Shown here: positions 1 through 47,949 of the stretch, one piece after another
Numbering within the stretch: the stretch's first letter is position 1
Layout of the letters: each line of letters starts with the position of its first letter
From: a virus
Direction: 5' to 3' (one strand)
Length of the DNA stretch: 64,000 bases
IMG/VR virus record: IMGVR_UViG_3300024978_000004
Coordinates: 15,941-79,940 of that record
Program-made: the position numbers and the translations under genes
Notes under the pieces: model-generated
Told to the model about the DNA's origin: nothing
What the model saw: only the letters and a program-made list of their open reading frames with translations
Database searches by the model: none

Positions 1-1528
1 GAATCCAGTGATCTGCGTAAGTGATATAACGATCGAACAGATTCTGTCCATACTCACTGTACGATTCGAGATAAGCAGTCTGGATCTCTTTACCAATGAA
101 CTCACCAAACTTTGGTGCAAGAATCGTTTTGATGAAATCAATATACTTCTCTTCGGTTTCACCATTAAACTGTTCTTGTTCAATCTGCTTCTCCAAAACA
201 TACATCAGGTGTACAGGGTTAGCAGCAACTTCGGTATTGTCGTAGTTAAACACCTTCGACAAAATTTTGTATGCAAATCGAGTCGACAGACCACTCATGC
301 CTTCATCAACGCCTGCATCATCACGATATTCCTGAAGTGGCTTGGCTTTTGGATCGGTGTCTTTTAGATTTTCACCATCATACACACGCATTTTCGAGAA
401 AATAAGCGAATTTTCAGGTTCCTTGAGTCGAGTCAGCACAGCAAACTGGGCCATCATCTCAAGAGTGCCAGGTGAGCACGGAGCATCAGCGAGCGAGCTG
501 TTACGAAGAAGCTTTTCATAAATGTTGGTTTCTTCGGTCACGCGCAAGCAATAAGGTACCTTGACAATATAAACACGATCAAGGAAGGCCTCGTTGTTCT
601 TGTTGTTGCGGAACGACTGCCATTCAGACTCGTTGCTGTGTGCAAGAACAACACCACTGAACGGAATTGCAGCACCTTCTGTACCATTGAAGTTACCTTC
701 TTGGGTAGCGGTTAGCAGCGGGTGCAACATTTTGATGGGAGCCTTAAACATTTCAACGAATTCGAGAATACCTTGGTTTGCCAAGCAAAGACCACCGCTG
801 TAGCTGTATGCATCAGGATCATCTTGCGAATAATCTTCCAACTTACGAATGTCGACTTTACCAACAAGAGCGGAAATATCTTGGTTGTTCTCATCACCCG
901 GTTCAGTTTTAGTAATGCCAACTTGATTCAAACGAGACGGCCAAACTTTAACAACCTTGAATTTGGTGATATCTCCACCAAATTCACCAAGGCGTTTTGC
1001 AGCCCACGGAGACATAACGTGATTGAGGTAGCGGTCAGGAATTCCATAGTCTCGTTCAAGAGATTTGCTGTGTTTTTCCTTACTAAACAAACCAAGCGGA
1101 GATTCGTGTACAGGAGAACCTTTAATGGCATAAAACGGAATCTGCTCCATCAACTCTTTAAGTTTTTCCGCAAGAGACGATTTGCTGGAGCCAACAGGAC
1201 CCAACAGATACAGAATTTGTTTCTTTTCTTCAAGACCTTGAGCAGCATGTTTAAAGTAGGCAACGATCTGTTCGATCACATTTTCAATACCATAAAATTC
1301 TTTAAAAGCAGGATAACGCTTGATGACACGATTCATAAAGATTCGGCTCAACCGAGGATCGTGTTTCGTATCAATAGTTTCAGGCTCACCAATCGCCATC
1401 AACATACGTTCGCCGGCACTGGCGTATGCAGTTGGGTCTTCTTTGCAGAGGTCGAGATATTCCTGAATGGTCATCTCTTCGGGTTGATGAGATTTGTATT
1501 GCTCTTGGTACTCGGTAAAAATACTCAT
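1..1528 (-). CDS. prkA: PrkA/YeaG-family serine protein kinase (AAA+), truncated by the left window edge
   Basis: Manual minus-strand translation from ATG 1528 (RBS AAGGAG upstream): MSIFTEYQEQY...MTIQEYLDLCKEDPTAYASAGERMLMAIGEP...EFYGIENVIEQIVAYFKHAAQGLEEKKQILYLLGPVGSSKSSLAE. Absent from the ORF track, presumably because it has no stop inside the window. Confidence 0.93.
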   Translation of the reverse strand, partial: MSIFTEYQEQYKSHQPEEMTIQEYLDLCKEDPTAYASAGERMLMAIGEPETIDTKHDPRLSRIFMNRVIKRYPAFKEFYGIENVIEQIVAYFKHAAQGLEEKKQILYLLGPVGSSKSSLAEKLKELMEQIPFYAIKGSPVHESPLGLFSKEKHSKSLERDYGIPDRYLNHVMSPWAAKRLGEFGGDITKFKVVKVWPSRLNQVGITKTEPGDENNQDISALVGKVDIRKLEDYSQDDPDAYSYSGGLCLANQGILEFVEMFKAPIKMLHPLLTATQEGNFNGTEGAAIPFSGVVLAHSNESEWQSFRNNKNNEAFLDRVYIVKVPYCLRVTEETNIYEKLLRNSSLADAPCSPGTLEMMAQFAVLTRLKEPENSLIFSKMRVYDGENLKDTDPKAKPLQEYRDDAGVDEGMSGLSTRFAYKILSKVFNYDNTEVAANPVHLMYVLEKQIEQEQFNGETEEKYIDFIKTILAPKFGEFIGKEIQTAYLESYSEYGQNLFDRYITYADHWI

Positions 1529-6891: not shown

Positions 6892-8153
6892 TTTGATAAT
6901 TGCTTAATTTGTTCTTCTGCAGTATCTATGTTACTTTCCAAATCATGTATAACACACTCATCAAGATTTGGGGACTTTTTTGCGGCAGATAATTTTACTT
7001 TCATTGCTGCAATTTTTGCTTTCAGTTTCTTGATCTCTTCTGTGTTTTCTTTAGTTTCTACACCTTCATGATAAGAACTGCGGCGACCCGAACTTTGTTT
7101 TTCATGCCAATCGTCGGACGCTGTTCTATCAGCAGTTCCTTCTCTATAACCTAAGTTATAGTATGCTGCGTTATCATACCCAAACGATTTGACGGGATCA
7201 ATTTTATCAACACCTGACACACCATGCGACTTTCCCATTTTGTATGCAGCGCGTTGTCCACCGTTCATCTCCATTAGCTCATCTTCTTTAACAATCTTAA
7301 AATCAGCACGTTTGCGTTCGGCTTTAAGATCACGAAGCTTTTTATTAAGTGGGTCAGTTTCTGGAACAGTACCACCTTTGCGCCAAATATCGTGTATTTT
7401 TAATTCCACAGCATTGATATCTTGATTAATTTCTTTTTTAGAACGACCTGCTTCCGTTACTACATTATACCCTTCATTGTGGGAGATTGCATAACCTTCC
7501 ACATATTCGGCTCCATGTACTTTGTAACCTTTGTTTTTAAAATGTTTTTTGGCTTTTTCAACAGCATCAGCTTTATCACCTTTCACCCTAACAAACTTCT
7601 GCACTTGTTCCTTGCGTTTGGTAACTGCTGGATGATCAGGTTCGGATACAGTAACGGCAACACGATGATATGGAGCATCAGCCTCCGCAACAACACCTTC
7701 AATAATGTGAGCATCAACATAATCATTTACAGCTTTTGTTGCTGCCTTATGGTCCATATTATGCATGCGTCCAAGTTGAGTAGCGGCATGACCAACTTTG
7801 TTAGCAAACCATTCAGCCCCACCACGTTTGTTATACTCAGCAATGTGCTTATCCAACAGATTTTTAATATCTGCAGTAATACTCCCTGCTGATTCATGAA
7901 GCATACCAGGCATTTTTGATTGGGATAGATTATCAAAGTGTCCCTTATCATTGCCTTCACTATCCTTTGCTGTCCAATAGTTATTATCGGAACCATCTTT
8001 TGGATGAACGGCTGAACGAACAACAAATCCTCTATCTTTAGCGGCAGCTTTCCAATCCGATAAACTGCTATATTTGCCACCAATAGCTTCATCAAGACGA
8101 GTTACTTTATATTTTGGATGAGGTAACATTGATTCTAAAACTTTTTTTAACAT
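6888..8153 (-). CDS. Charged modular protein, probable internal head protein
   Basis: 421 aa; short modules separated by (L/V/I)xE|S/A/G motifs (LHESA, VVTEAG, YHEG) that resemble prohead-protease sites. Confidence 0.55.
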   Translation of the reverse strand: MLKKVLESMLPHPKYKVTRLDEAIGGKYSSLSDWKAAAKDRGFVVRSAVHPKDGSDNNYWTAKDSEGNDKGHFDNLSQSKMPGMLHESAGSITADIKNLLDKHIAEYNKRGGAEWFANKVGHAATQLGRMHNMDHKAATKAVNDYVDAHIIEGVVAEADAPYHRVAVTVSEPDHPAVTKRKEQVQKFVRVKGDKADAVEKAKKHFKNKGYKVHGAEYVEGYAISHNEGYNVVTEAGRSKKEINQDINAVELKIHDIWRKGGTVPETDPLNKKLRDLKAERKRADFKIVKEDELMEMNGGQRAAYKMGKSHGVSGVDKIDPVKSFGYDNAAYYNLGYREGTADRTASDDWHEKQSSGRRSSYHEGVETKENTEEIKKLKAKIAAMKVKLSAAKKSPNLDECVIHDLESNIDTAEEQIKQLSK

Positions 8154-15882: not shown

Positions 15883-15953
15883 AATGTTTTCCATAAAAAT
15901 GAGTCCACAATTACTTATGGACTCATAAAGTATAACCAAATTACAAATTTAAA

Positions 15954-18791: not shown

Positions 18792-18867
18792 TGGTGCGCT
18801 CGGGGAGGATCGAACTCCCACCAAATCGGGTTTAGAAGCCGTTGCTCTACCATTGAGCTACGAGCGC
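18792..18867 (-). tRNA. tRNA with CUA anticodon (putative amber suppressor), encoded CCA
   Basis: 76-nt cloverleaf: acceptor GCGCTCG/CGAGCGC, D arm GCTC/GAGC, loop TT-CTA-AA, T arm GGGAG-TTCGATC-CTCCC, ACCA end. Anticodon stem has only 3 Watson-Crick pairs. Confidence 0.8.
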
Positions 18868-32398: not shown

Positions 32399-32486
32399 CA
32401 CGGTAATTCCCGCTGCCATTGAAGTTACTCTTTAGGCCGGTGAACTTTGTGCCCCAGTCTTTCGAACTGGTATACCCTTTACATGT
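32399..32486 (-). promoter_or_regulatory. c-di-GMP-I (GEMM-I) riboswitch aptamer
   Basis: CATGTAAAAGGGTATACCAGTTC-GAAA-GACTGGGGCACAAAGTTCACCGGCCTAAAGAGTAACTTCAATGGCAGCGGGAATTACCGTG: GAAA tetraloop in P2, CCUAA...AUGG receptor in P3, and G20/A47/C92 equivalents intact relative to Vibrio Vc2. Confidence 0.88.
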
Positions 32487-35845: not shown

Positions 35846-37219
35846 TTACATAGTGCTGTTTGCTCGCACTTCATCGAACGTATATTCCCTAACAATTTTT
35901 CCATTAACGAATACAGTTTCAAGTGCATCAACCACTCCAGGTGTTTCAATGTCAGAAAAATACCCACCATCTTCACTCTTATACAGAGTAACACGCCCCT
36001 TCTTCGACCGCTTGCCAACATCGGTAACAGGATCCTTATACACATCAACCCAGTTTCCATCAATGCACGCTGCAGACGTTTTCATCGCAAATTTCAAAGT
36101 GTCGCGGTTTACCTGTTGAAGCAGTGCTCCACCCATACCAAAAGCAACGTTGTCAGCACTATATCCAGCAAACTTCAATGTACGAAGAATCGATTTAATG
36201 CTACCCTCATTGATTCCATCGCCCTGAATAACACGTACTACCGGATTAAGAACTTTATATCCCTTCTCATTCACTGTTGATCCAAATGCAGCATCAAGTG
36301 CTCGGACAACCTCACACACGACCGAAGCAGGATCACCACTATCGGGGCGAATAACAACAGTAGCACCACTATCAAGCACTTCTTGTTTCAGTTCTTTACC
36401 CCACAGATTTGTGACGGCATTGAGAATGTCGTACGAATCACTAACAGCCGCAAACATCTTGCCTTTGCCACCAAACTGTTTAATCATGTTGCGGTAAGCA
36501 TCAACCTCGTTTTTACGACCCCACGACGTGTAGGAGCTGTGTTCACCAGCCGGAATCGAGTAACCAGGCATACCAATTGCATTGTAATATTTCTGTGCAA
36601 AACGAATACCCGATACAGTGTCCGACCCCATAAAGTTGACCAAGTGGGCAGCGCCGCCAATACCAGCACTTTCAAAGGAACTAACGCCACGGGCGCCAAA
36701 ATCATGCAGTTTGAACGACAGACCTGCAGGATCACCAGTCTCTTCTAATGCTGCACGAATCACTTGCTTGATGCTCCAACTATTGGTAGCAACAGTCGTA
36801 CCATACCATACAGCACGAAGAATTGCAGGCTCGATATACGACGTCAGCCAGAAACATTTGTCGTCAGTGTTTTCAACGGTAACAAGTACGTTTTTTGTAC
36901 CGAGGACCATACCTTCAGGAACGGCACGGACAACAAGAGGTAGATAACCAGCGTATTTGTCCACAATATACTGCCATCCGGCTCGGTTAAACGGTTCACC
37001 GTGAGCAGCGAAGAATTCATCAGCTTCTTCAATCATCTCTTGAGTGACGGGCTTTGTCAGATATTCCTTTAAGAAAATTTGAAGACCGAACATAACGGTT
37101 TTGTCATATTCGCCGCCTCGAGACTCAATGTAAGAGAACACTTTGGTGGTATTGGGTGGATATTGAAGAAAGTGTGATGCTTTGTATGAATCAGTATTAA
37201 GAATAATGTTTGTTTCCAT
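35846..37219 (-). CDS. nadV: Nicotinamide phosphoribosyltransferase (Nampt)
   Basis: NTDSYKASHFLQYP, KLHDFGARG, GEHSSYTSWG, VSDSYD, VIRPDSGDP, VIQGDGI, AFGMGGALLQ. Confidence 0.93.
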   Translation of the reverse strand: METNIILNTDSYKASHFLQYPPNTTKVFSYIESRGGEYDKTVMFGLQIFLKEYLTKPVTQEMIEEADEFFAAHGEPFNRAGWQYIVDKYAGYLPLVVRAVPEGMVLGTKNVLVTVENTDDKCFWLTSYIEPAILRAVWYGTTVATNSWSIKQVIRAALEETGDPAGLSFKLHDFGARGVSSFESAGIGGAAHLVNFMGSDTVSGIRFAQKYYNAIGMPGYSIPAGEHSSYTSWGRKNEVDAYRNMIKQFGGKGKMFAAVSDSYDILNAVTNLWGKELKQEVLDSGATVVIRPDSGDPASVVCEVVRALDAAFGSTVNEKGYKVLNPVVRVIQGDGINEGSIKSILRTLKFAGYSADNVAFGMGGALLQQVNRDTLKFAMKTSAACIDGNWVDVYKDPVTDVGKRSKKGRVTLYKSEDGGYFSDIETPGVVDALETVFVNGKIVREYTFDEVRANSTM

Positions 37220-37245
37220 GATAAAACTCCTTTATCAAAAATTAT

Positions 37246-37266
37246 ACAAACCGTCTATCAGTTTGT
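37246..37266 (-). promoter_or_regulatory. GATAGAC-loop hairpin, copy 1 (nampt leader)
   Basis: ACAAACT-GATAGAC-GGTTTGT, followed by RBS hairpin GATAAA-GGAGT-TTTATC (37236-37220) abutting the ATG. Confidence 0.7.
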
Positions 37267-37281
37267 TTGGTACTACAAAAA

Positions 37282-37527
37282 TTAACGAGAACGGTCCACC
37301 GGACTCGCTTGTTTAATTGTTGCTGTGATTCCACTGAACGTCGGATCGCCAGGGCCACGATCATACATATCGTACGAACGCATTGTTGCGTTAAATTTGA
37401 TGTCAATATCAGACAGGCTTACGTCGATATTATATTTGTCGCGAAGTAAATTGAAGACAGCTTCTTGGACGAGCTTGTGTGCATCAGCCTCCGAGAAATC
37501 AAACGTCATCTTGGTATTAATATTCAT
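37282..37527 (-). CDS. Hypothetical protein
   Basis: 81 aa; GATAGAC hairpin and RBS hairpin upstream. Confidence 0.65.
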   Translation of the reverse strand: MNINTKMTFDFSEADAHKLVQEAVFNLLRDKYNIDVSLSDIDIKFNATMRSYDMYDRGPGDPTFSGITATIKQASPVDRSR

Positions 37528-37553
37528 GTTAAGCTCCTTAACAAGTTATGAAG

Positions 37554-37574
37554 GTGAAGGGTCTATCCCTCCAC
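37554..37574 (-). promoter_or_regulatory. GATAGAC-loop hairpin, copy 2
   Basis: GTGGAGG-GATAGAC-CCTTCAC; RBS hairpin GTTAA-GGAGC-TTAAC (37542-37528). Confidence 0.7.
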
Positions 37575-37586
37575 ATGTTATTTAAT

Positions 37587-37614
37587 ATTATAACTAATAA
37601 AATATATAAGTCAA
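37587..37614 (-). promoter_or_regulatory. sigma70-type promoter
   Basis: TTGACT, 16-nt spacer, TATAAT. Confidence 0.7.
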
Positions 37615-37622
37615 CACTTATT

Positions 37623-37829
37623 TTAAGCGTAAGTATCAATTCGACCTTTTGGTACTGGTTTCTTCTTCACATCAGGATCATTTTCTGTCTTAACAATTCG
37701 TTTAACTGGCTGAACCTTTGTTGTTGACGATTTGTCTAACAACTTTGTGATGGGTGAAACAAATATTTCTCTTAACAACATATAATTCCTTTGCGATTGT
37801 GTATCTTTATATTTACACAAATAGATCAA
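37623..37829 (-). CDS. Small basic protein
   Basis: Up to 68 aa; start uncertain. Confidence 0.5.
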   Translation of the reverse strand: MIYLCKYKDTQSQRNYMLLREIFVSPITKLLDKSSTTKVQPVKRIVKTENDPDVKKKPVPKGRIDTYA

Positions 37830-38179
37830 AGTTCACTTAACTGACGGTCAATATCAGCGATTTGTTCGAGCAAATCTCGTTTTTGTTTTTCAAGTTTGGT
37901 ACGTTCCCAAACTTCATCAGGCTTCGAAATTTTAATCAGTTCAAAATCTCCGCCTGCCCCCCATTGCCAAAAACGTTCCATTTCTACGGCCATATCGATA
38001 ATGTCGCCTAGACGACCTTCAAAATAGCCAAGTGATGGTTGATAGTGCGGTCCGTGAAGATCACAATTGGGATCTTCCCCCTTAACATGCCACAATCCAT
38101 AGTCATCAAGATCATATTTTTGCAGCAACTGCCGATAATTCCACGAAACAATATATTTGTCTTTTGCTTTTGAGTCCAT
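37826..38179 (-). CDS. Hypothetical protein
   Basis: 117 aa, W.VKGEDPNCDL.GPH.QP.LGYFEG; GATAGAC hairpin upstream. Confidence 0.7.
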   Translation of the reverse strand: MDSKAKDKYIVSWNYRQLLQKYDLDDYGLWHVKGEDPNCDLHGPHYQPSLGYFEGRLGDIIDMAVEMERFWQWGAGGDFELIKISKPDEVWERTKLEKQKRDLLEQIADIDRQLSEL

Positions 38180-38203
38180 AAGGAAATCCTCCTAATGATT
38201 TGA

Positions 38204-38228
38204 ATGATTAACGTCTATCGTTAATCAT
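38204..38228 (-). promoter_or_regulatory. GATAGAC-loop hairpin, copy 3
   Basis: ATGATTAAC-GATAGAC-GTTAATCAT (9 bp); RBS hairpin AGGA-GGATT-TCCT before ATG 38179. Confidence 0.7.
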
Positions 38229-38253
38229 AATAATACACTAATACTTATTTATG

Positions 38254-38778
38254 TCAACTATTTTTGAAACTTCCTATTAACATTTGTGTTTTAACAACAC
38301 CTGGGGACACTTCCCTCGTGTAGTGGAATCCGTCTGGATCCAATTCCAATATTTTTTGGCCGAGAATTCGTTCCGCTTGAGTGTTAGGTATTGGTTTGCC
38401 ACCTAAATTCAACATCACCTTTTCCAAATTGCCACTAAACTCACCCCACGATTTGTTTCCTGTGATATCATCCGAAAGAATAGCCTTCAGCGCATTTTTT
38501 CCATCTCTTGTATCGTTATGAAAAACTAATCGAACTTTATGACCACTGCTATTACGATAGATTACTCCAGCAACGATTTTACCATCAATAAACGACACCT
38601 TCCATACTCCAGGTGTATTGATTAAATTGTCTAAATTTGCACCACTTAATCCCATTCCTGAACCATATTTGTCGTATGTATTTTGCAATAACTGCCATAC
38701 ATAACTGGCATAACGCTTTCGTTGGGTAGGTGTTACAAGATTTACAAAGTTCTCACACAGAATTTCGTATATTTTCAT
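38254..38778 (-). CDS. Hypothetical protein with MKIxEIL.E N-terminus
   Basis: 174 aa, MKIYEILCEN. Confidence 0.65.
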   Translation of the reverse strand: MKIYEILCENFVNLVTPTQRKRYASYVWQLLQNTYDKYGSGMGLSGANLDNLINTPGVWKVSFIDGKIVAGVIYRNSSGHKVRLVFHNDTRDGKNALKAILSDDITGNKSWGEFSGNLEKVMLNLGGKPIPNTQAERILGQKILELDPDGFHYTREVSPGVVKTQMLIGSFKNS

Positions 38779-38813
38779 GTGGCATTTACCTAATATTGAT
38801 TTAATATCAATAT

Positions 38814-39020
38814 TTATGACATCATGTCTGTCAAATCTCGTCCGTTTAAATAAGTAATCAAAAAATCGTGAAGATTGTATGTGACACCATCATACCCAAG
38901 GATAATATCAGGTGGTATGACCGATTCAACTACCACCATACCTGTGTTTAACATCCAAAATGCAGGGTCTCTGGGTGCAAGTTTGATTATATCTCCAGCA
39001 TTAATAATAACTTCATACAT
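38814..39020 (-). CDS. Hypothetical protein
   Basis: 68 aa. Confidence 0.5.
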   Translation of the reverse strand: MYEVIINAGDIIKLAPRDPAFWMLNTGMVVVESVIPPDIILGYDGVTYNLHDFLITYLNGRDLTDMMS

Positions 39021-39573
39021 TTTTATAAACTAAATCATTCATAATGTGATGTACAGTGTCCACATTTTTTCCGTATACATTATCAACTTCGAAGAAAGGT
39101 ACACCTGTATCGATTAATAATGCTCTCAAATCCTTATCAATTTGAATGGCCTCATTCTCATCTTGATTTCTGCCAACCGTTTCATACGGAACCCCGCGTC
39201 GAATAAGAACGTTGATGTTGTTGTACGAATTGTATGTGTCCATCACATAATCAAAAAATGATGGGGGGAAATCTTTTGGCATATACATAAACCCTAACAA
39301 CAACGATGTATCGGCAACAATATAATCTACCTGACCCACCAAACGTCGAAAACGGTTATTTTGTTTACTGAAGATGTAATCCTGTTCTGTCAACATGTGG
39401 TGACGACCTTCAAAGGTATAATCCTTTGCGACTTCAGGCACATACTCAACCTTCCCTTTTTGGGCGAGTGACATATAGTAAGCAAGACCAAGTGCAGTAG
39501 TGGATTTACCAACGCCTGGTCCACCCAACATATTGATTATAGTAACGTCTTTGTTATTCGAATATGGTAACAT
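39013..39573 (-). CDS. AAA_28/NadR-like P-loop kinase or ATPase
   Basis: INMLGGPGVGKST, EYVPEVAK, IVADTSLL. Confidence 0.75.
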   Translation of the reverse strand: MLPYSNNKDVTIINMLGGPGVGKSTTALGLAYYMSLAQKGKVEYVPEVAKDYTFEGRHHMLTEQDYIFSKQNNRFRRLVGQVDYIVADTSLLLGFMYMPKDFPPSFFDYVMDTYNSYNNINVLIRRGVPYETVGRNQDENEAIQIDKDLRALLIDTGVPFFEVDNVYGKNVDTVHHIMNDLVYKNV

Positions 39574-39584
39574 TTCATCTTCCT

Positions 39585-39794
39585 TTATAAGTTGTGCATT
39601 TGCTTGTCGTAATAATATCGTGCAAAATCACAAATCTCTGCTGCTTGTTGTTTTGTACATATGATAACACGTGTACACGGATCGGTAATTAGTTGTCGAT
39701 CCATCAACCATTTAATCATTCCGGAATTAGGATCCGCACATATACCAATATGCACAGACTCCAAATCGTTTGGTTCGGTGAGGGAGTTGTTCAT
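39585..39794 (-). CDS. Hypothetical protein
   Basis: 69 aa. Confidence 0.5.
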   Translation of the reverse strand: MNNSLTEPNDLESVHIGICADPNSGMIKWLMDRQLITDPCTRVIICTKQQAAEICDFARYYYDKQMHNL

Positions 39795-40207
39795 GGCATC
39801 ACAGGCGAAGGTATTTCACCTCTCGTAACACACGGCAAGTTAGAAACATCAGGGGTTACGCTTGTAAACACTTCTTCCCCGTCTTTGGCTGCAAACAATG
39901 CGGTATTGTTATCAAGACTGTATATGGTCCAGCCACCTGAAACCATTTGCCAACCAGTCAGTTTATCTTCGGGTCCAACATCAGGAAATTTAACCAACAA
40001 AACATATTTGTCTCCAGATGATGGATTGTGAATACCCCAGCACGCCTTTTCAGAGCGCTTGTAATAGTCCAGTGCTGCTTTTGCGTATATTAATCCTTCA
40101 GTAAAAGGATCGGCCTTTGTTGTGCTCCGTGACGCTGTGTCTTCTTTTTTCGTACAACCCAACACCAAAAATACTATTAGTGCAGAAACCATCACATGTT
40201 TTTTCAC
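39791..40207 (-). CDS. Lipoprotein
   Basis: Lipobox VLGC. Confidence 0.65.
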   Translation of the reverse strand: MKKHVMVSALIVFLVLGCTKKEDTASRSTTKADPFTEGLIYAKAALDYYKRSEKACWGIHNPSSGDKYVLLVKFPDVGPEDKLTGWQMVSGGWTIYSLDNNTALFAAKDGEEVFTSVTPDVSNLPCVTRGEIPSPVMP

Positions 40208-40221
40208 AACAAACTCCTCAA

Positions 40222-40632
40222 TTAGTGATTAATAACATAACAGCGCGACAACAAAGCCATGATAACTTTGTTGTTATAATCTCCACAACGACCATTAACT
40301 AATTCGGTTGGGGTAACCCATTGAACGTTAATATCTCGTTCCATTTGAGAGGCTGCTTCCGATTCGACGGTATGAACGTATCTAAATGTTGTTACGTGAT
40401 AGCCTCCATCATCAACACCTTCATACAACTGAATCAATTGTCCACGTTGTGTAACCAATCCAGTTTCTTCCTGTAATTCTCGTATTGCTGCATCAATGGG
40501 TGTTTCACCGTCTTCAAGCTTTCCACCAGGGAGACCAAAAACATCATATTCGCCCCTAACAGATGCAGCGAGAATCTTACCCTCTCTGTTAAAGACTACT
40601 ACACATGCAGCATTACGAGTTTCACCATTCAT
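40222..40632 (-). CDS. Nudix hydrolase
   Basis: Nudix box GGKLEDGETPIDAAIRELQEETG. Confidence 0.9.
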   Translation of the reverse strand: MNGETRNAACVVVFNREGKILAASVRGEYDVFGLPGGKLEDGETPIDAAIRELQEETGLVTQRGQLIQLYEGVDDGGYHVTTFRYVHTVESEAASQMERDINVQWVTPTELVNGRCGDYNNKVIMALLSRCYVINH

Positions 40633-41660
40633 TAAATTTGCCCAAGAAAATATTGAATTATGTGATAATGATCCTCAAAACATTTCGATTCGTCAAGCTC
40701 ATTTAGAGGAATCCATTTTGCCTTTTCGGCATCATCACTACCTTTAACTTTTGGGAGGTCACCGGGCGGTAGTTCTATGAGATACGCATGTGTGATTGTG
40801 CGCCCACGAAGAGACCTGTTGGGTGTATCAAACACATGAGATGTTTTGACACTACCACGGAGAACTGCCTCCGGTACTTTAATTTTAGTTTCCTCGCGAA
40901 GTTCACGAATTGCCGCGTCAAGCAGCCGTTCGTTTTGATTAACAAATCCACCCGGCAATGCACCAAGTCCACGACCTGGGGCGGCTCGACGTTTAATCAT
41001 CAGTACATGTCCGGACTGAACAACAACAGCATCAGCAGTAACAAAAGTTGGAGCATACGGTGCCCTATCCCATGAGTTTTTGTAGGCTTGAATATAAAAA
41101 TATTCTTCCTCGAGTACATAAAATCCTGGCGTTTTCATCCAATCAACGATATAGCTCTCGACAGCTTTTGAAACGGTTGGGTACACATGTTGTTTAACAG
41201 CAAACATTTCTTCGCGAATTTGTGTGGCATTTATACCTTGAAAATTAGGTACTTCAACAACACTCCATTGTGGAAACAGCTTTAGATAAAAGCTACTTTC
41301 GTCTTTACTGTGACCAATAATACCTATTTTGTGAGGGTTGGGTACGGCTATATAATCATCTTCTGCAATAACACTATCAATAGTGTTTTGAATATCACGA
41401 ACCCACTTTTGGTCATTGTATGGTTTATCTTTAGCCGCGACAACAACATAATTGGTATGTGAGGACCCCATCGCAGCAAGAATCATTTGCTTGCGCTCGA
41501 CAAAATTCCATGGGTTTTTAATGGTTCGTGGTTGGTTAGTAGAACCAACCACGACAATGACTTTTTCGGCCATTTCACACGCCTGTTTGAGCACTGCTTC
41601 GTGACCATTGTGAAACGGTGAAAAACGACCGATATAAATTAGATAATCAAACTTTTTCAT
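40632..41660 (-). CDS. nadM: Bifunctional NMN adenylyltransferase / ADP-ribose pyrophosphatase (NadM-Nudix)
   Basis: IGRFSPFHNGH (HxGH); C-terminal Nudix LPGGFV...AAIRELREET; FEDHYHII. Confidence 0.93.
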   Translation of the reverse strand: MKKFDYLIYIGRFSPFHNGHEAVLKQACEMAEKVIVVVGSTNQPRTIKNPWNFVERKQMILAAMGSSHTNYVVVAAKDKPYNDQKWVRDIQNTIDSVIAEDDYIAVPNPHKIGIIGHSKDESSFYLKLFPQWSVVEVPNFQGINATQIREEMFAVKQHVYPTVSKAVESYIVDWMKTPGFYVLEEEYFYIQAYKNSWDRAPYAPTFVTADAVVVQSGHVLMIKRRAAPGRGLGALPGGFVNQNERLLDAAIRELREETKIKVPEAVLRGSVKTSHVFDTPNRSLRGRTITHAYLIELPPGDLPKVKGSDDAEKAKWIPLNELDESKCFEDHYHIIQYFLGQI

Positions 41661-41685
41661 AATAGAGCTCCTCTATCAAAATTGT

Positions 41686-41708
41686 AATACGAAGTCTATC
41701 TTCGTATT
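41686..41708 (-). promoter_or_regulatory. GATAGAC-loop hairpin, copy 4 (nadM leader)
   Basis: AATACGAA-GATAGAC-TTCGTATT; RBS hairpin GATAGA-GGAGC-TCTATT (41677-41661) abutting the ATG. Confidence 0.75.
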
Positions 41709-41764
41709 TTATTACTACAAATATTACATCATAATTATATTACACTAAACCATTAATGTCAACT

Positions 41765-44682: not shown

Positions 44683-44855
44683 AAGGGGACCTTTAAGTTT
44701 AATGAATTCACATTCTACATTATTCTTAATAAAGGTCAACAAATTTGTGTGTTGACATATTTGTAGTTTTGGTGTAATTATATCAAATATTGTCAATCTC
44801 GAAACATTTAAAATGTTCCCATAAATACATACAAAAATTGAGAGGAACATGTAAA

Positions 44856-47851: not shown

Positions 47852-47949
47852 GTTATTCTCTTATAATCGTTTAAGATATTTATACAAGTGTATCTTACAC
47901 TTTAACCGAAGTTATATCAACATGATTGTTTAGCATCGTAAAGGATACG

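Follow-up and report, generated by a model that had tools for sequence, protein, structure and literature searches.

A conserved two-hairpin leader RNA in front of the NAD+-rebuilding genes of phages

How do phages control the genes with which they rebuild nicotinamide adenine dinucleotide (NAD+)? With the NARP2 pathway, consisting of nicotinamide phosphoribosyltransferase (Nampt) and a nicotinamide mononucleotide (NMN) adenylyltransferase, phages restore the NAD+ that is destroyed by Thoeris, DSR, SIR2 and other defences. The pathway overproduces NAD+ and consumes phosphoribosyl pyrophosphate (PRPP), so that it may be costly (NARP2 preprint). On its regulation we found nothing in the literature searched. 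The question is raised by a stretch of 64,000 nucleotides of viral DNA (positions 15,941 to 79,940 of the IMG/VR record IMGVR_UViG_3300024978_000004; hereafter the window), in which nampt, nadM and two small open reading frames (ORFs), orf81 and orf117, are each preceded by a hairpin with the loop GAUAGAC. We find that these four hairpins are members of a conserved two-hairpin leader RNA that accompanies the NARP2 genes of phages. The upstream hairpin with the constant loop is called P1, the downstream hairpin with the Shine-Dalgarno (SD) sequence P2. In the window the following elements, all on the minus strand, were recognized from sequence and fold (P2 loops in brackets):

37246..37266, minus strand: P1 of the nampt leader, 7-bp stem with one U.G pair, loop GAUAGAC
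37220..37236, minus strand: P2 of the nampt leader, GAUAAA[GGAGU]UUUAUC, SD in the loop, followed by ATG
37554..37574, minus strand: P1 of the orf81 leader, 7-bp stem with one G.U pair, loop GAUAGAC
37528..37542, minus strand: P2 of the orf81 leader, GUUAA[GGAGC]UUAAC, followed by ATG
38204..38228, minus strand: P1 of the orf117 leader, 9-bp stem, loop GAUAGAC
38181..38193, minus strand: P2 of the orf117 leader, AGGA[GGAUU]UCCU
41686..41708, minus strand: P1 of the nadM leader, 8-bp stem, loop GAUAGAC
41661..41677, minus strand: P2 of the nadM leader, GAUAGA[GGAGC]UCUAUU, followed by ATG

An earlier note on this DNA, made from the letters alone, had described the four hairpins as sharing one loop on unrelated stems, and this was confirmed for all of them. 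The stems ACAAACU/GGUUUGU, GUGGAGG/CCUUCAC, AUGAUUAAC/GUUAAUCAU and AAUACGAA/UUCGUAUU are each capped by GAUAGAC, and two of the four need a G.U pair, so that these two can close completely only in RNA of the minus strand. The word GATAGAC occurs four times in the window (4.2 expected) and nine times in the 135,483-bp genome. It forms a hairpin loop at four of these nine sites, all four of them in the window, while the remaining five have no flanking stem. A 7-nt loop on a stem of 7 bp or more was found at about 471 of 270,966 positions (~0.17%), GATAGAC being the commonest loop among these hairpins, and by simple arithmetic the chance that four of nine GATAGAC sites form such hairpins is about 1e-9. 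Since the word count is at background, the signal lies in structure and placement rather than in word frequency. The suspicion that the motif might occur at background frequency is thus justified for the bare word, whereas the hairpin structure and the placement at start codons stand out clearly. In all four copies (nampt, nadM-Nudix, orf81 and orf117) the distance from the end of the loop to the ATG is exactly 33 nt.

The minimum-energy folds of all four leaders contain P1 together with P2 (z-scores -1.3 to -3.4), in agreement with the second, SD-bearing hairpin that had been noticed downstream of each copy. In these folds a G-C pair closes P1, leaving the pentaloop AUAGA, and the P2 loop holds the GGAG of the SD and abuts the ATG. 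The upstream sequence that had been described as common to the nampt and nadM leaders was also recovered: TTTGTAGTA is found only twice genome-wide, 4 nt upstream of these two P1 stems. A genome search for further copies with one or two loop mismatches gave none that was convincing, and a GATACAC hairpin at position 47888 was discarded as an extra copy due to its better folding as a different small hairpin.

Is the leader restricted to this phage? Megablast against phage records revealed no close DNA relatives, and in IMG/VR, contigs whose NadM is only 52–54% identical carry the same leader. In two of them (L001 and L002 in our locus labels) a promoter, a different stem, the identical loop and an SD hairpin precede nadM, and in L003 the leader stands before the gene that precedes nadM. 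From six leaders we built a covariance model, R1, which does not include P2; a second model, R2, comprises P1 and P2. On the whole genome R1 returned only the four known copies, and it detected the nampt copy of an 89-kb relative (L020, ~1480) with a TTGTAGTA box before P1. R1 was then run on 79 IMG/VR loci chosen solely for encoding a Nampt homologue. Here it gave 49 matches at an expectation value (E) of at most 1, of which 49 out of 49 are on the nampt strand; for the majority, the match stops at the start codon ATG of either nampt or a nadM-type gene. With R2 and further loci, 127 matches were obtained, 124 of them distinct. The search of the whole genome and of related phages that the earlier note had recommended therefore yielded four copies here and 124 distinct copies overall by covariance models.

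Two alignments were evaluated, A2 with 53 sequences and A3 with the 124 distinct copies. They define an architecture in which P1, a stem of 6–10 bp of any sequence capped by G[AUAGA]C, is followed by a single-stranded linker, by P2 and by the AUG. In A2, 92.9% of the cells are paired compared with 58.1% in shuffles, and the covariation is 0.863 compared with 0.203, a value that none of 500 shuffles reached; sliding the partners by one column reduced pairing to about 50%. The figures for A3 are 93.0% paired (57–58% in shuffles) and a covariation of 0.872 compared with 0.180. All four Watson-Crick pair types occur at every P1 position of A3, and about 6% of the P1 pairs are G.U. P2 is a weak, A-U-rich hairpin that carries the SD GGAG in its loop (GGAGU, GGAUU or GGAAC), lies about 22 nt downstream of the P1 loop and ends at the AUG. 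Because P2 lay outside R1, its covariation in A2 (UA, CG, AU and GC at the outer pair) was not fitted to the model.

The loop itself is GAUAGAC in 111 of 124 distinct copies. Its positions 2 and 4 are invariant across the 124 aligned rows, and an A-to-C change at position 4 appeared in one weak match only. Four copies have the loop AAUAGAU, in which positions 1 and 7 change jointly from G-C to A-U; these positions are therefore paired, which leaves AUAGA as the actual loop. Poor in G and rich in A/U, the linker has no conserved sequence and varies in length. The distance between loop and SD is 19–25 nt in 110 of 112 copies (mean 22, standard deviation 1.9), with a stem span of 5–12. In locus L105 P1 is fused to the SD, GGA[GAUAGAC]UCC standing directly before the ATG. 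The same locus (L105:6819-6884 and 7976-8003) holds one leader with a tandem pair of P1 and two cases of a 3-bp P1 whose 5' arm is the SD.

These data bear on whether the element acts as RNA or as DNA. In the latter case GTCTATC would be a double-stranded site read by a DNA-binding protein, and the inverted repeats on either side would be fortuitous. A constant 7-bp core close to promoters, as seen in three of the four window copies, is what such a site would look like. However, the flanking arms covary in 124 sequences, the ~6% of P1 pairs that are G.U would be A-C mismatches on the other strand, and all copies are on the gene strand at a distance fixed to the SD and not to promoters. We therefore consider a DNA site scarcely credible. 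The G.U pairs in P1 and the restriction of all matches in the Nampt loci to the gene strand indicate RNA, and the argument that a constant loop on covarying stems speaks against a double-stranded palindrome proved sound.

Which genes are preceded by the leader? Among 127 unique leaders, 61 stand before Nampt and 52 before NadM (~90% together), three before members of phrog_33851, four before phrog_12218, one before NadA and a few before other, unknown genes. A scan of IMG/VR that was blind to the genes (loop, gap of 14–30 nt, AAAGGAGTTTT) gave 67 unique matches. With at least six of eight stem pairs there were 43, of which 39 lie before Nampt or NadM and one before an orf117 homologue; 14 matches with neither stem nor NAD gene represent random background. 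The proposal of a regulon with the two NARP2 genes at its centre is thus well borne out, and each regulated cistron carries its own copy. We regard the leader as a strong candidate for a control element of a known anti-defence pathway. Its presence before both enzymes across phage groups suggests that the pathway is controlled post-transcriptionally by one common signal. Whether this signal is a protein or a metabolite, its identification would reveal the way in which phages time or meter their counter-defence.

The single NadA case is a phage-borne quinolinate synthase (L037:1092-2072, Pfam 1.6e-84) with the same P1/P2 leader in front, so that besides NAD salvage the regulon also covers the synthesis of NAD de novo. 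Proteins of phrog_12218 have 105–108 amino acids, an N-terminal coiled coil and the conserved motif LC..NHTDGCGW.YE, and the leader motif is present in several of their contigs. By guilt by association phrog_33851, phrog_12218 and phage NadA are nominated as candidate members of the pathway. The family members located are:

L030:5270-5587, phrog_12218
L049:6361-6681, phrog_12218
L063:6362-6682, phrog_12218
L176:~3383, phrog_12218
window 37826-38179, minus strand, orf117 family (phrog_33851)
L052:5650-6021, orf117 family
L125:5366-5741, orf117 family
L003:2537-2995, orf117 family
L109:4113-4475, orf117 family

The orf117 family has the invariant motifs G.W..GEDPNCD..G.H..P and FWQWGAGG, and its homologues adjoin nadM-nampt even in RSP15, a phage without the loop. 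Since the family recurs behind the motif elsewhere and lies beside nadM-nampt, it is a credible additional member of the pathway and, judged from these sequences, a candidate extra component of NARP2; nothing marks orf117 as a regulator. The earlier note had taken both small ORFs for candidate pathway members, which holds for orf117 and its family but not for orf81, which does not recur. The AlphaFold2 model of orf117, a confident one (pLDDT 89.2), had no match in PDB or AFDB below E 0.1, the GIY-YIG-like rows that appeared being weak and not significant, and a recognizable RNA-binding or NAD fold was discarded due to the lack of a significant structural neighbour. A peptide-pattern scan of IMG/VR with orf117 gave no matches.

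Six cultured phages carry the leader: the Synechococcus phages B23 and BUCT-ZZ01 and the Rhodobacterales phages DSS3_MAL1, RpAliso, MD18 and RcXuper. By search of the whole records, B23 (243,633 bp) and DSS3_MAL1 (149,582 bp) each contain exactly two copies, before nadM and nampt, and a complete jumbo phage of 452,799 bp contains one. RpAliso, MD18 and RcXuper, which are relatives, have the motif in both leaders and differ from one another by clear compensatory changes in the stems, and BUCT-ZZ01 has the variant loop GAAAGAC in both. Among the carriers are T4-like cyanophages as well as a jumbo phage of 453 kb, and the known hosts are Cyanobacteria and Alphaproteobacteria. In bacterial genomes (596 Gb) the pattern of the gene-blind scan gave true copies in two contigs among the 120 matches listed. 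Both contigs have nadM and nampt, and one of them, 201 kb long, is full of small phage-like ORFs; on the basis of these listed matches we rejected a bacterial origin of the element. The GAUAGAC loop is absent from the Ralstonia phages RSP15 and RsoM2USA, the Acidovorax phage ACP17 and the Vibrio phage PG216. RSP15 and RsoM2USA keep a hairpin with the SD in its loop directly before the starts of nampt and nadM (L109:5937-5991, L109:4860-4930, L108:5931-5982, L108:260-350), and in RSP15 an upstream hairpin has a different 7-nt loop. Such hairpins in phages without the GAUAGAC loop suggest that P2 may predate P1.

The distribution bears on the idea that the leader is a constitutive module for translation or stability instead of a switch. 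P1 would then be a protective hairpin and insulator, 5'-terminal or inter-cistronic, by which a G-poor standby site is kept open; contacts of its loop with the 30S subunit (S1, platform or rRNA) would enhance translation, and P2 would present the SD. Occurrence in hosts of different phyla is expected of a contact with the ribosome, and the G-poor, A/U-rich linker, the fixed distance between loop and SD, the start of about half of the copies a few nt from a predicted transcription start and the SD-in-loop hairpins of RSP15 and RsoM2USA all fit this idea. A generic enhancer would however be expected on other highly expressed genes as well, whereas whole genomes hold the element only at NAD genes, and we know of no complementarity of the loop to 16S rRNA. 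A purely constitutive role therefore appears distinctly unlikely to us.

In the window the leaders are linked to the following genes, promoters and upstream boxes:

35846..37219, minus strand: nampt, nicotinamide phosphoribosyltransferase, 457 amino acids (Pfam NAPRTase 1.4e-60, NAMPT_N 4.9e-31)
37271..37279, minus strand: TTTGTAGTA box upstream of nampt P1 (genome word search)
37282..37527, minus strand: orf81, 81 amino acids, no Pfam or PHROG match, not found behind the motif in other phages
37587..37614, minus strand: sigma70-like promoter, TTGACT, 16 nt, TATAAT, 11/12, feeding orf81 and nampt
37826..38179, minus strand: orf117, 117 amino acids, member of phrog_33851, invariant GEDPNCD...WG.GG
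38230..38257, minus strand: sigma70-like promoter, TTGACA, 16 nt, TATTAT, 11/12, feeding orf117
40632..41660, minus strand: nadM, bifunctional NMN adenylyltransferase and Nudix protein, 342 amino acids (CTP_transf_like 1.3e-13, NUDIX 1.7e-20)
41713..41721, minus strand: TTTGTAGTA box upstream of nadM P1 (genome word search)
41734..41762, minus strand: sigma70-like promoter, TTGACA, 17 nt, TATAAT, 12/12, feeding nadM

The three best matches to a sigma70-like promoter within 16 kb (12/12, 11/12 and 11/12) lie directly upstream of three window copies. P1 of orf117 begins 1 nt after the -10 box, so that it occupies the extreme 5' terminus of the transcript. The nampt copy, located in the 62-nt gap after orf81, lacks a promoter of its own. 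About half of 122 copies have a promoter of at least 9/12 within 90 nt, about half of the copies start a few nt from a predicted transcription start, and at least 25 copies are within 20 nt of the stop codon of the upstream gene. The inter-cistronic, promoter-less copies imply that the element functions independently of a 5' end or promoter.

Compact cassettes of promoter, hairpin, SD and ATG are known as PeSLs from the early regions of T4-type phages, between which they move (Arbiol et al. 2010, PMC2839356). If the leader were a cassette of this type, it would serve transcriptional insulation and the shuffling of genes by recombination. Three window copies do combine a strong sigma70-like promoter, hairpin, SD and ATG, in one subclass of PeSLs the hairpin follows the -10 box (PMC2839356), and the cassette described here evidently moves between phages as well. 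PeSLs have a conserved stem GGGG...CCCC with terminator or attenuator function and accompany varied ORFans in plastic regions of one phage lineage (PMC2839356). In the leader, by contrast, it is the loop that is invariant, whereas the stem is free, with all four pair types at each position, and the hairpin is not followed by a U-tract. A promoter is found at three of four window copies, many copies elsewhere being promoter-less. The element is further tied to two specific genes, with ~90% of copies before Nampt or NadM in several unrelated phage groups. We thus rejected identity with PeSLs, and a mobile cassette of this type as explanation is very improbable.

How, then, might the leader work? 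The loop of P1 is located ~33 nt before the AUG, which corresponds to the 5' edge of the region covered by the 30S subunit. The fixed spacing of the loop to the SD and the fusion of P1 with the SD in L105 point to translation initiation. Simple hairpins with an invariant loop are typical of protein binding sites such as the thrS operator, the iron-responsive element (IRE) and boxB. As the conserved part of the leader besides the SD is a single pentaloop with a free linker and no complementary partner, a protein site is favoured over a ligand pocket. A conserved single-stranded loop, a covarying stem, the vicinity of the ribosome binding site and the sense strand, which together characterize an operator, were all observed. 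We therefore propose, with a probability of roughly 0.45, that the leader serves as an operator through which translation initiation is controlled gene by gene. Its P1 loop would be the feature recognized by a factor acting in trans, most probably a protein; once bound, this factor would regulate how the 30S subunit gains access to the SD held in P2, and Nampt, NadM and the accessory genes would thereby be switched together.

As no third gene recurs together with the motif in phages and hosts that are not related, whatever reads the loop is most likely a product of the cassette or a universal host component. We speculate that NadM-Nudix or Nampt could play this part and that NAD+, ADP-ribose, NMN or nicotinamide could modulate the binding. 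Bacterial NrtR repressors sense ADP-ribose through a Nudix fold. By analogy, NadM-Nudix is a candidate for the loop reader, its Nudix domain sharing the ADP-ribose-sensing fold of NrtR.

Partners of the loop within the RNA were considered as well. Loop-complementary words (GTCTAT, TCTATC, TCTAT and others) were not enriched in the 330 nt downstream compared with upstream in 108 leaders and showed no positional peak, and we rejected a loop pseudoknot on these grounds. The earlier suggestion that the loop mimics the 5' arm of the ribosome binding site hairpin and competes for its 3' arm was not upheld: the complementarity is limited to the nampt and nadM leaders of the window. A tRNA-like reading of the 7-nt loop was dismissed, position 33 being A instead of U.

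Several points weigh against an operator read by a protein. The neighbourhood comparison of ORF clusters within ±8 kb, with 27 loci with and 52 without the motif, gave spurious antisense ORFs only and no co-occurring gene other than NadM, hence no candidate for the binder. That the element is portable between phages without relationship and between host phyla is just as compatible with a sensor made of RNA alone. Part of the constancy of the distance between loop and SD could result from a low rate of insertions and deletions and from the length penalties of the covariance models. A3 was enriched by a pattern that requires GATAGAC and AAAGGAGTTTT, which inflates the conservation values obtained from it; the bias is smaller in A2. 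Finally, the present phage was found in ten sequencing runs from wastewater or bioreactors, all ten of DNA and none of RNA.

An RNA-only sensor would be a very small riboswitch of a third NAD-related class that binds NAD+, NMN, nicotinamide, ADP-ribose or PRPP, its P1 pentaloop and SD-bearing P2 making up either the pocket or an alternatively folded state by which the SD is gated. We regard this as a serious rival, if an unlikely one. Two-hairpin mini-riboswitches with variable linkers exist, as guanidine-II demonstrates. The strict association with the NAD genes Nampt, NadM and NadA, the invariant loop on covarying stems, the SD within a second helix and the movement between unrelated phages and host phyla without an accompanying regulator gene are all in line with a riboswitch, and feedback control would pay in view of NAD+ overproduction and PRPP drain (NARP2 preprint). 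On the other hand, just ~7 nucleotides outside the SD are conserved, which is little for a ligand pocket, the linker varies in sequence and length, and neither a pseudoknot nor loop-loop complementarity was found. In L105 all that is left of the element is a 3-bp P1 merged with the SD. Riboswitches are usually bacterial, whereas the motif is nearly absent from bacterial genomes (the two contigs among 120 matches listed). That the leader is a new, unusually small and essentially phage-only riboswitch sensing NAD+ or a cleavage product (ADP-ribose or nicotinamide) is likewise rather unlikely. If true, the NARP2 enzymes would be switched on only when host immunity destroys NAD+, and the leader would be the first metabolite-sensing RNA wired to phage anti-defence.

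Comparison with known RNAs bears on both the protein-read operator and the riboswitch. With Rfam 15 at gathering thresholds the whole window contained only a tRNA and a c-di-GMP-I riboswitch, both away from the leaders. Between 35500 and 43000 at E ≤ 10 the sole overlap was SpF61_sRNA, with 25 bits against a gathering threshold of 60 and thus due to chance. The Rfam check suggested beforehand hence gave no family match, NAD+-I and NAD+-II riboswitches included. No description of the leader was found in a full-text literature search, and the NARP2 preprint does not mention it. The leader is thus apparently an undescribed RNA family of a known general kind, the cis-acting leader operator, and would add a family to the databases as well as a compact, portable regulatory part.

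The best analogy for its possible working is the thrS operator of E. coli, a loop-specific hairpin ~30 nt upstream of the AUG that is read by the ThrRS encoded downstream, in competition with the 30S subunit. There is no sequence relationship, and the thrS loop mimics a tRNA anticodon and has a known binder, whereas AUAGA is not anticodon-like and the operator is common to several genes. IREs also have a constant loop on variable stems and occur in several mRNAs of one pathway, and they are bound by IRP1 (aconitase), an enzyme of metabolism that signals the state of the pathway through its binding to RNA. As IREs are eukaryotic, are located near the cap and have the loop CAGUGN with a bulged C, they serve as an analogy only. 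The boxB hairpin of lambdoid nut sites resembles P1 in its short stem, its conserved pentaloop, its position just downstream of early phage promoters and its reading by a small phage protein. It has, however, a GNRA-like loop (GAAAA or GACAA), is accompanied by boxA and acts on RNA polymerase. The leader has the loop AUAGA, a fixed distance to the SD and many promoter-less, inter-cistronic copies, and apart from TTTGTAGTA in close relatives there is no conserved upstream box of the nut kind.

Among riboswitches, guanidine-II (mini-ykkC) is similarly tiny, with two hairpins, a variable linker and the SD in the region of the second hairpin. Both of its loops are ACGR and kiss upon ligand binding, while in the leader only P1 has a conserved loop other than the SD and the loops of P1 and P2 are not complementary. 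The NAD+-I (nadA motif) and NAD+-II (pnuC motif) RNAs precede genes of NAD biosynthesis or transport, as the leader does. They differ in architecture, are bacterial and not phage-borne, and their covariance models gave no match at E ≤ 10.

Several carriers infect tractable hosts, which makes the question of the signal testable: RpAliso with Ruegeria pomeroyi DSS-3, MD18 with Phaeobacter inhibens, RcXuper with Rhodobacter capsulatus and BUCT-ZZ01 with Synechococcus elongatus PCC 7942.

Some further observations concern the phage as a whole. The only tRNA of the window (18792-18867, minus strand; Rfam tRNA 59 bits) has the amber-reading anticodon CUA and is labelled tRNA-Pyl by ARAGORN. The leader loop displays UAG, and a kissing interaction with this tRNA would be pure speculation. 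A c-di-GMP-I riboswitch aptamer lies at 32399-32486 on the minus strand (57.5 bits against a gathering threshold of 35, E 1.3e-8). The record is probably a partial phage (CheckV completeness 56%), and in its last 40 kb there is no ATG-started ORF of at least 300 amino acids. The exact orf117 protein is also encoded on a 346-kb contig, so that the present phage may be a jumbo phage. A PrkA/YeaG-like serine protein kinase of 639 amino acids at 1-1528 (minus strand, extending past the start of the window) is 71% identical to a YeaG-annotated protein of Enterobacter phage LAU1 and has relatives in uncultured phages of more than 600 kb. A perfect 7-bp inverted repeat, GTCAACA..TGTTGAC, at 44735-44756 is placed between divergent promoter-like sites, and with a TTGAC word resembling a -35 box in each of its arms it is a putative operator.

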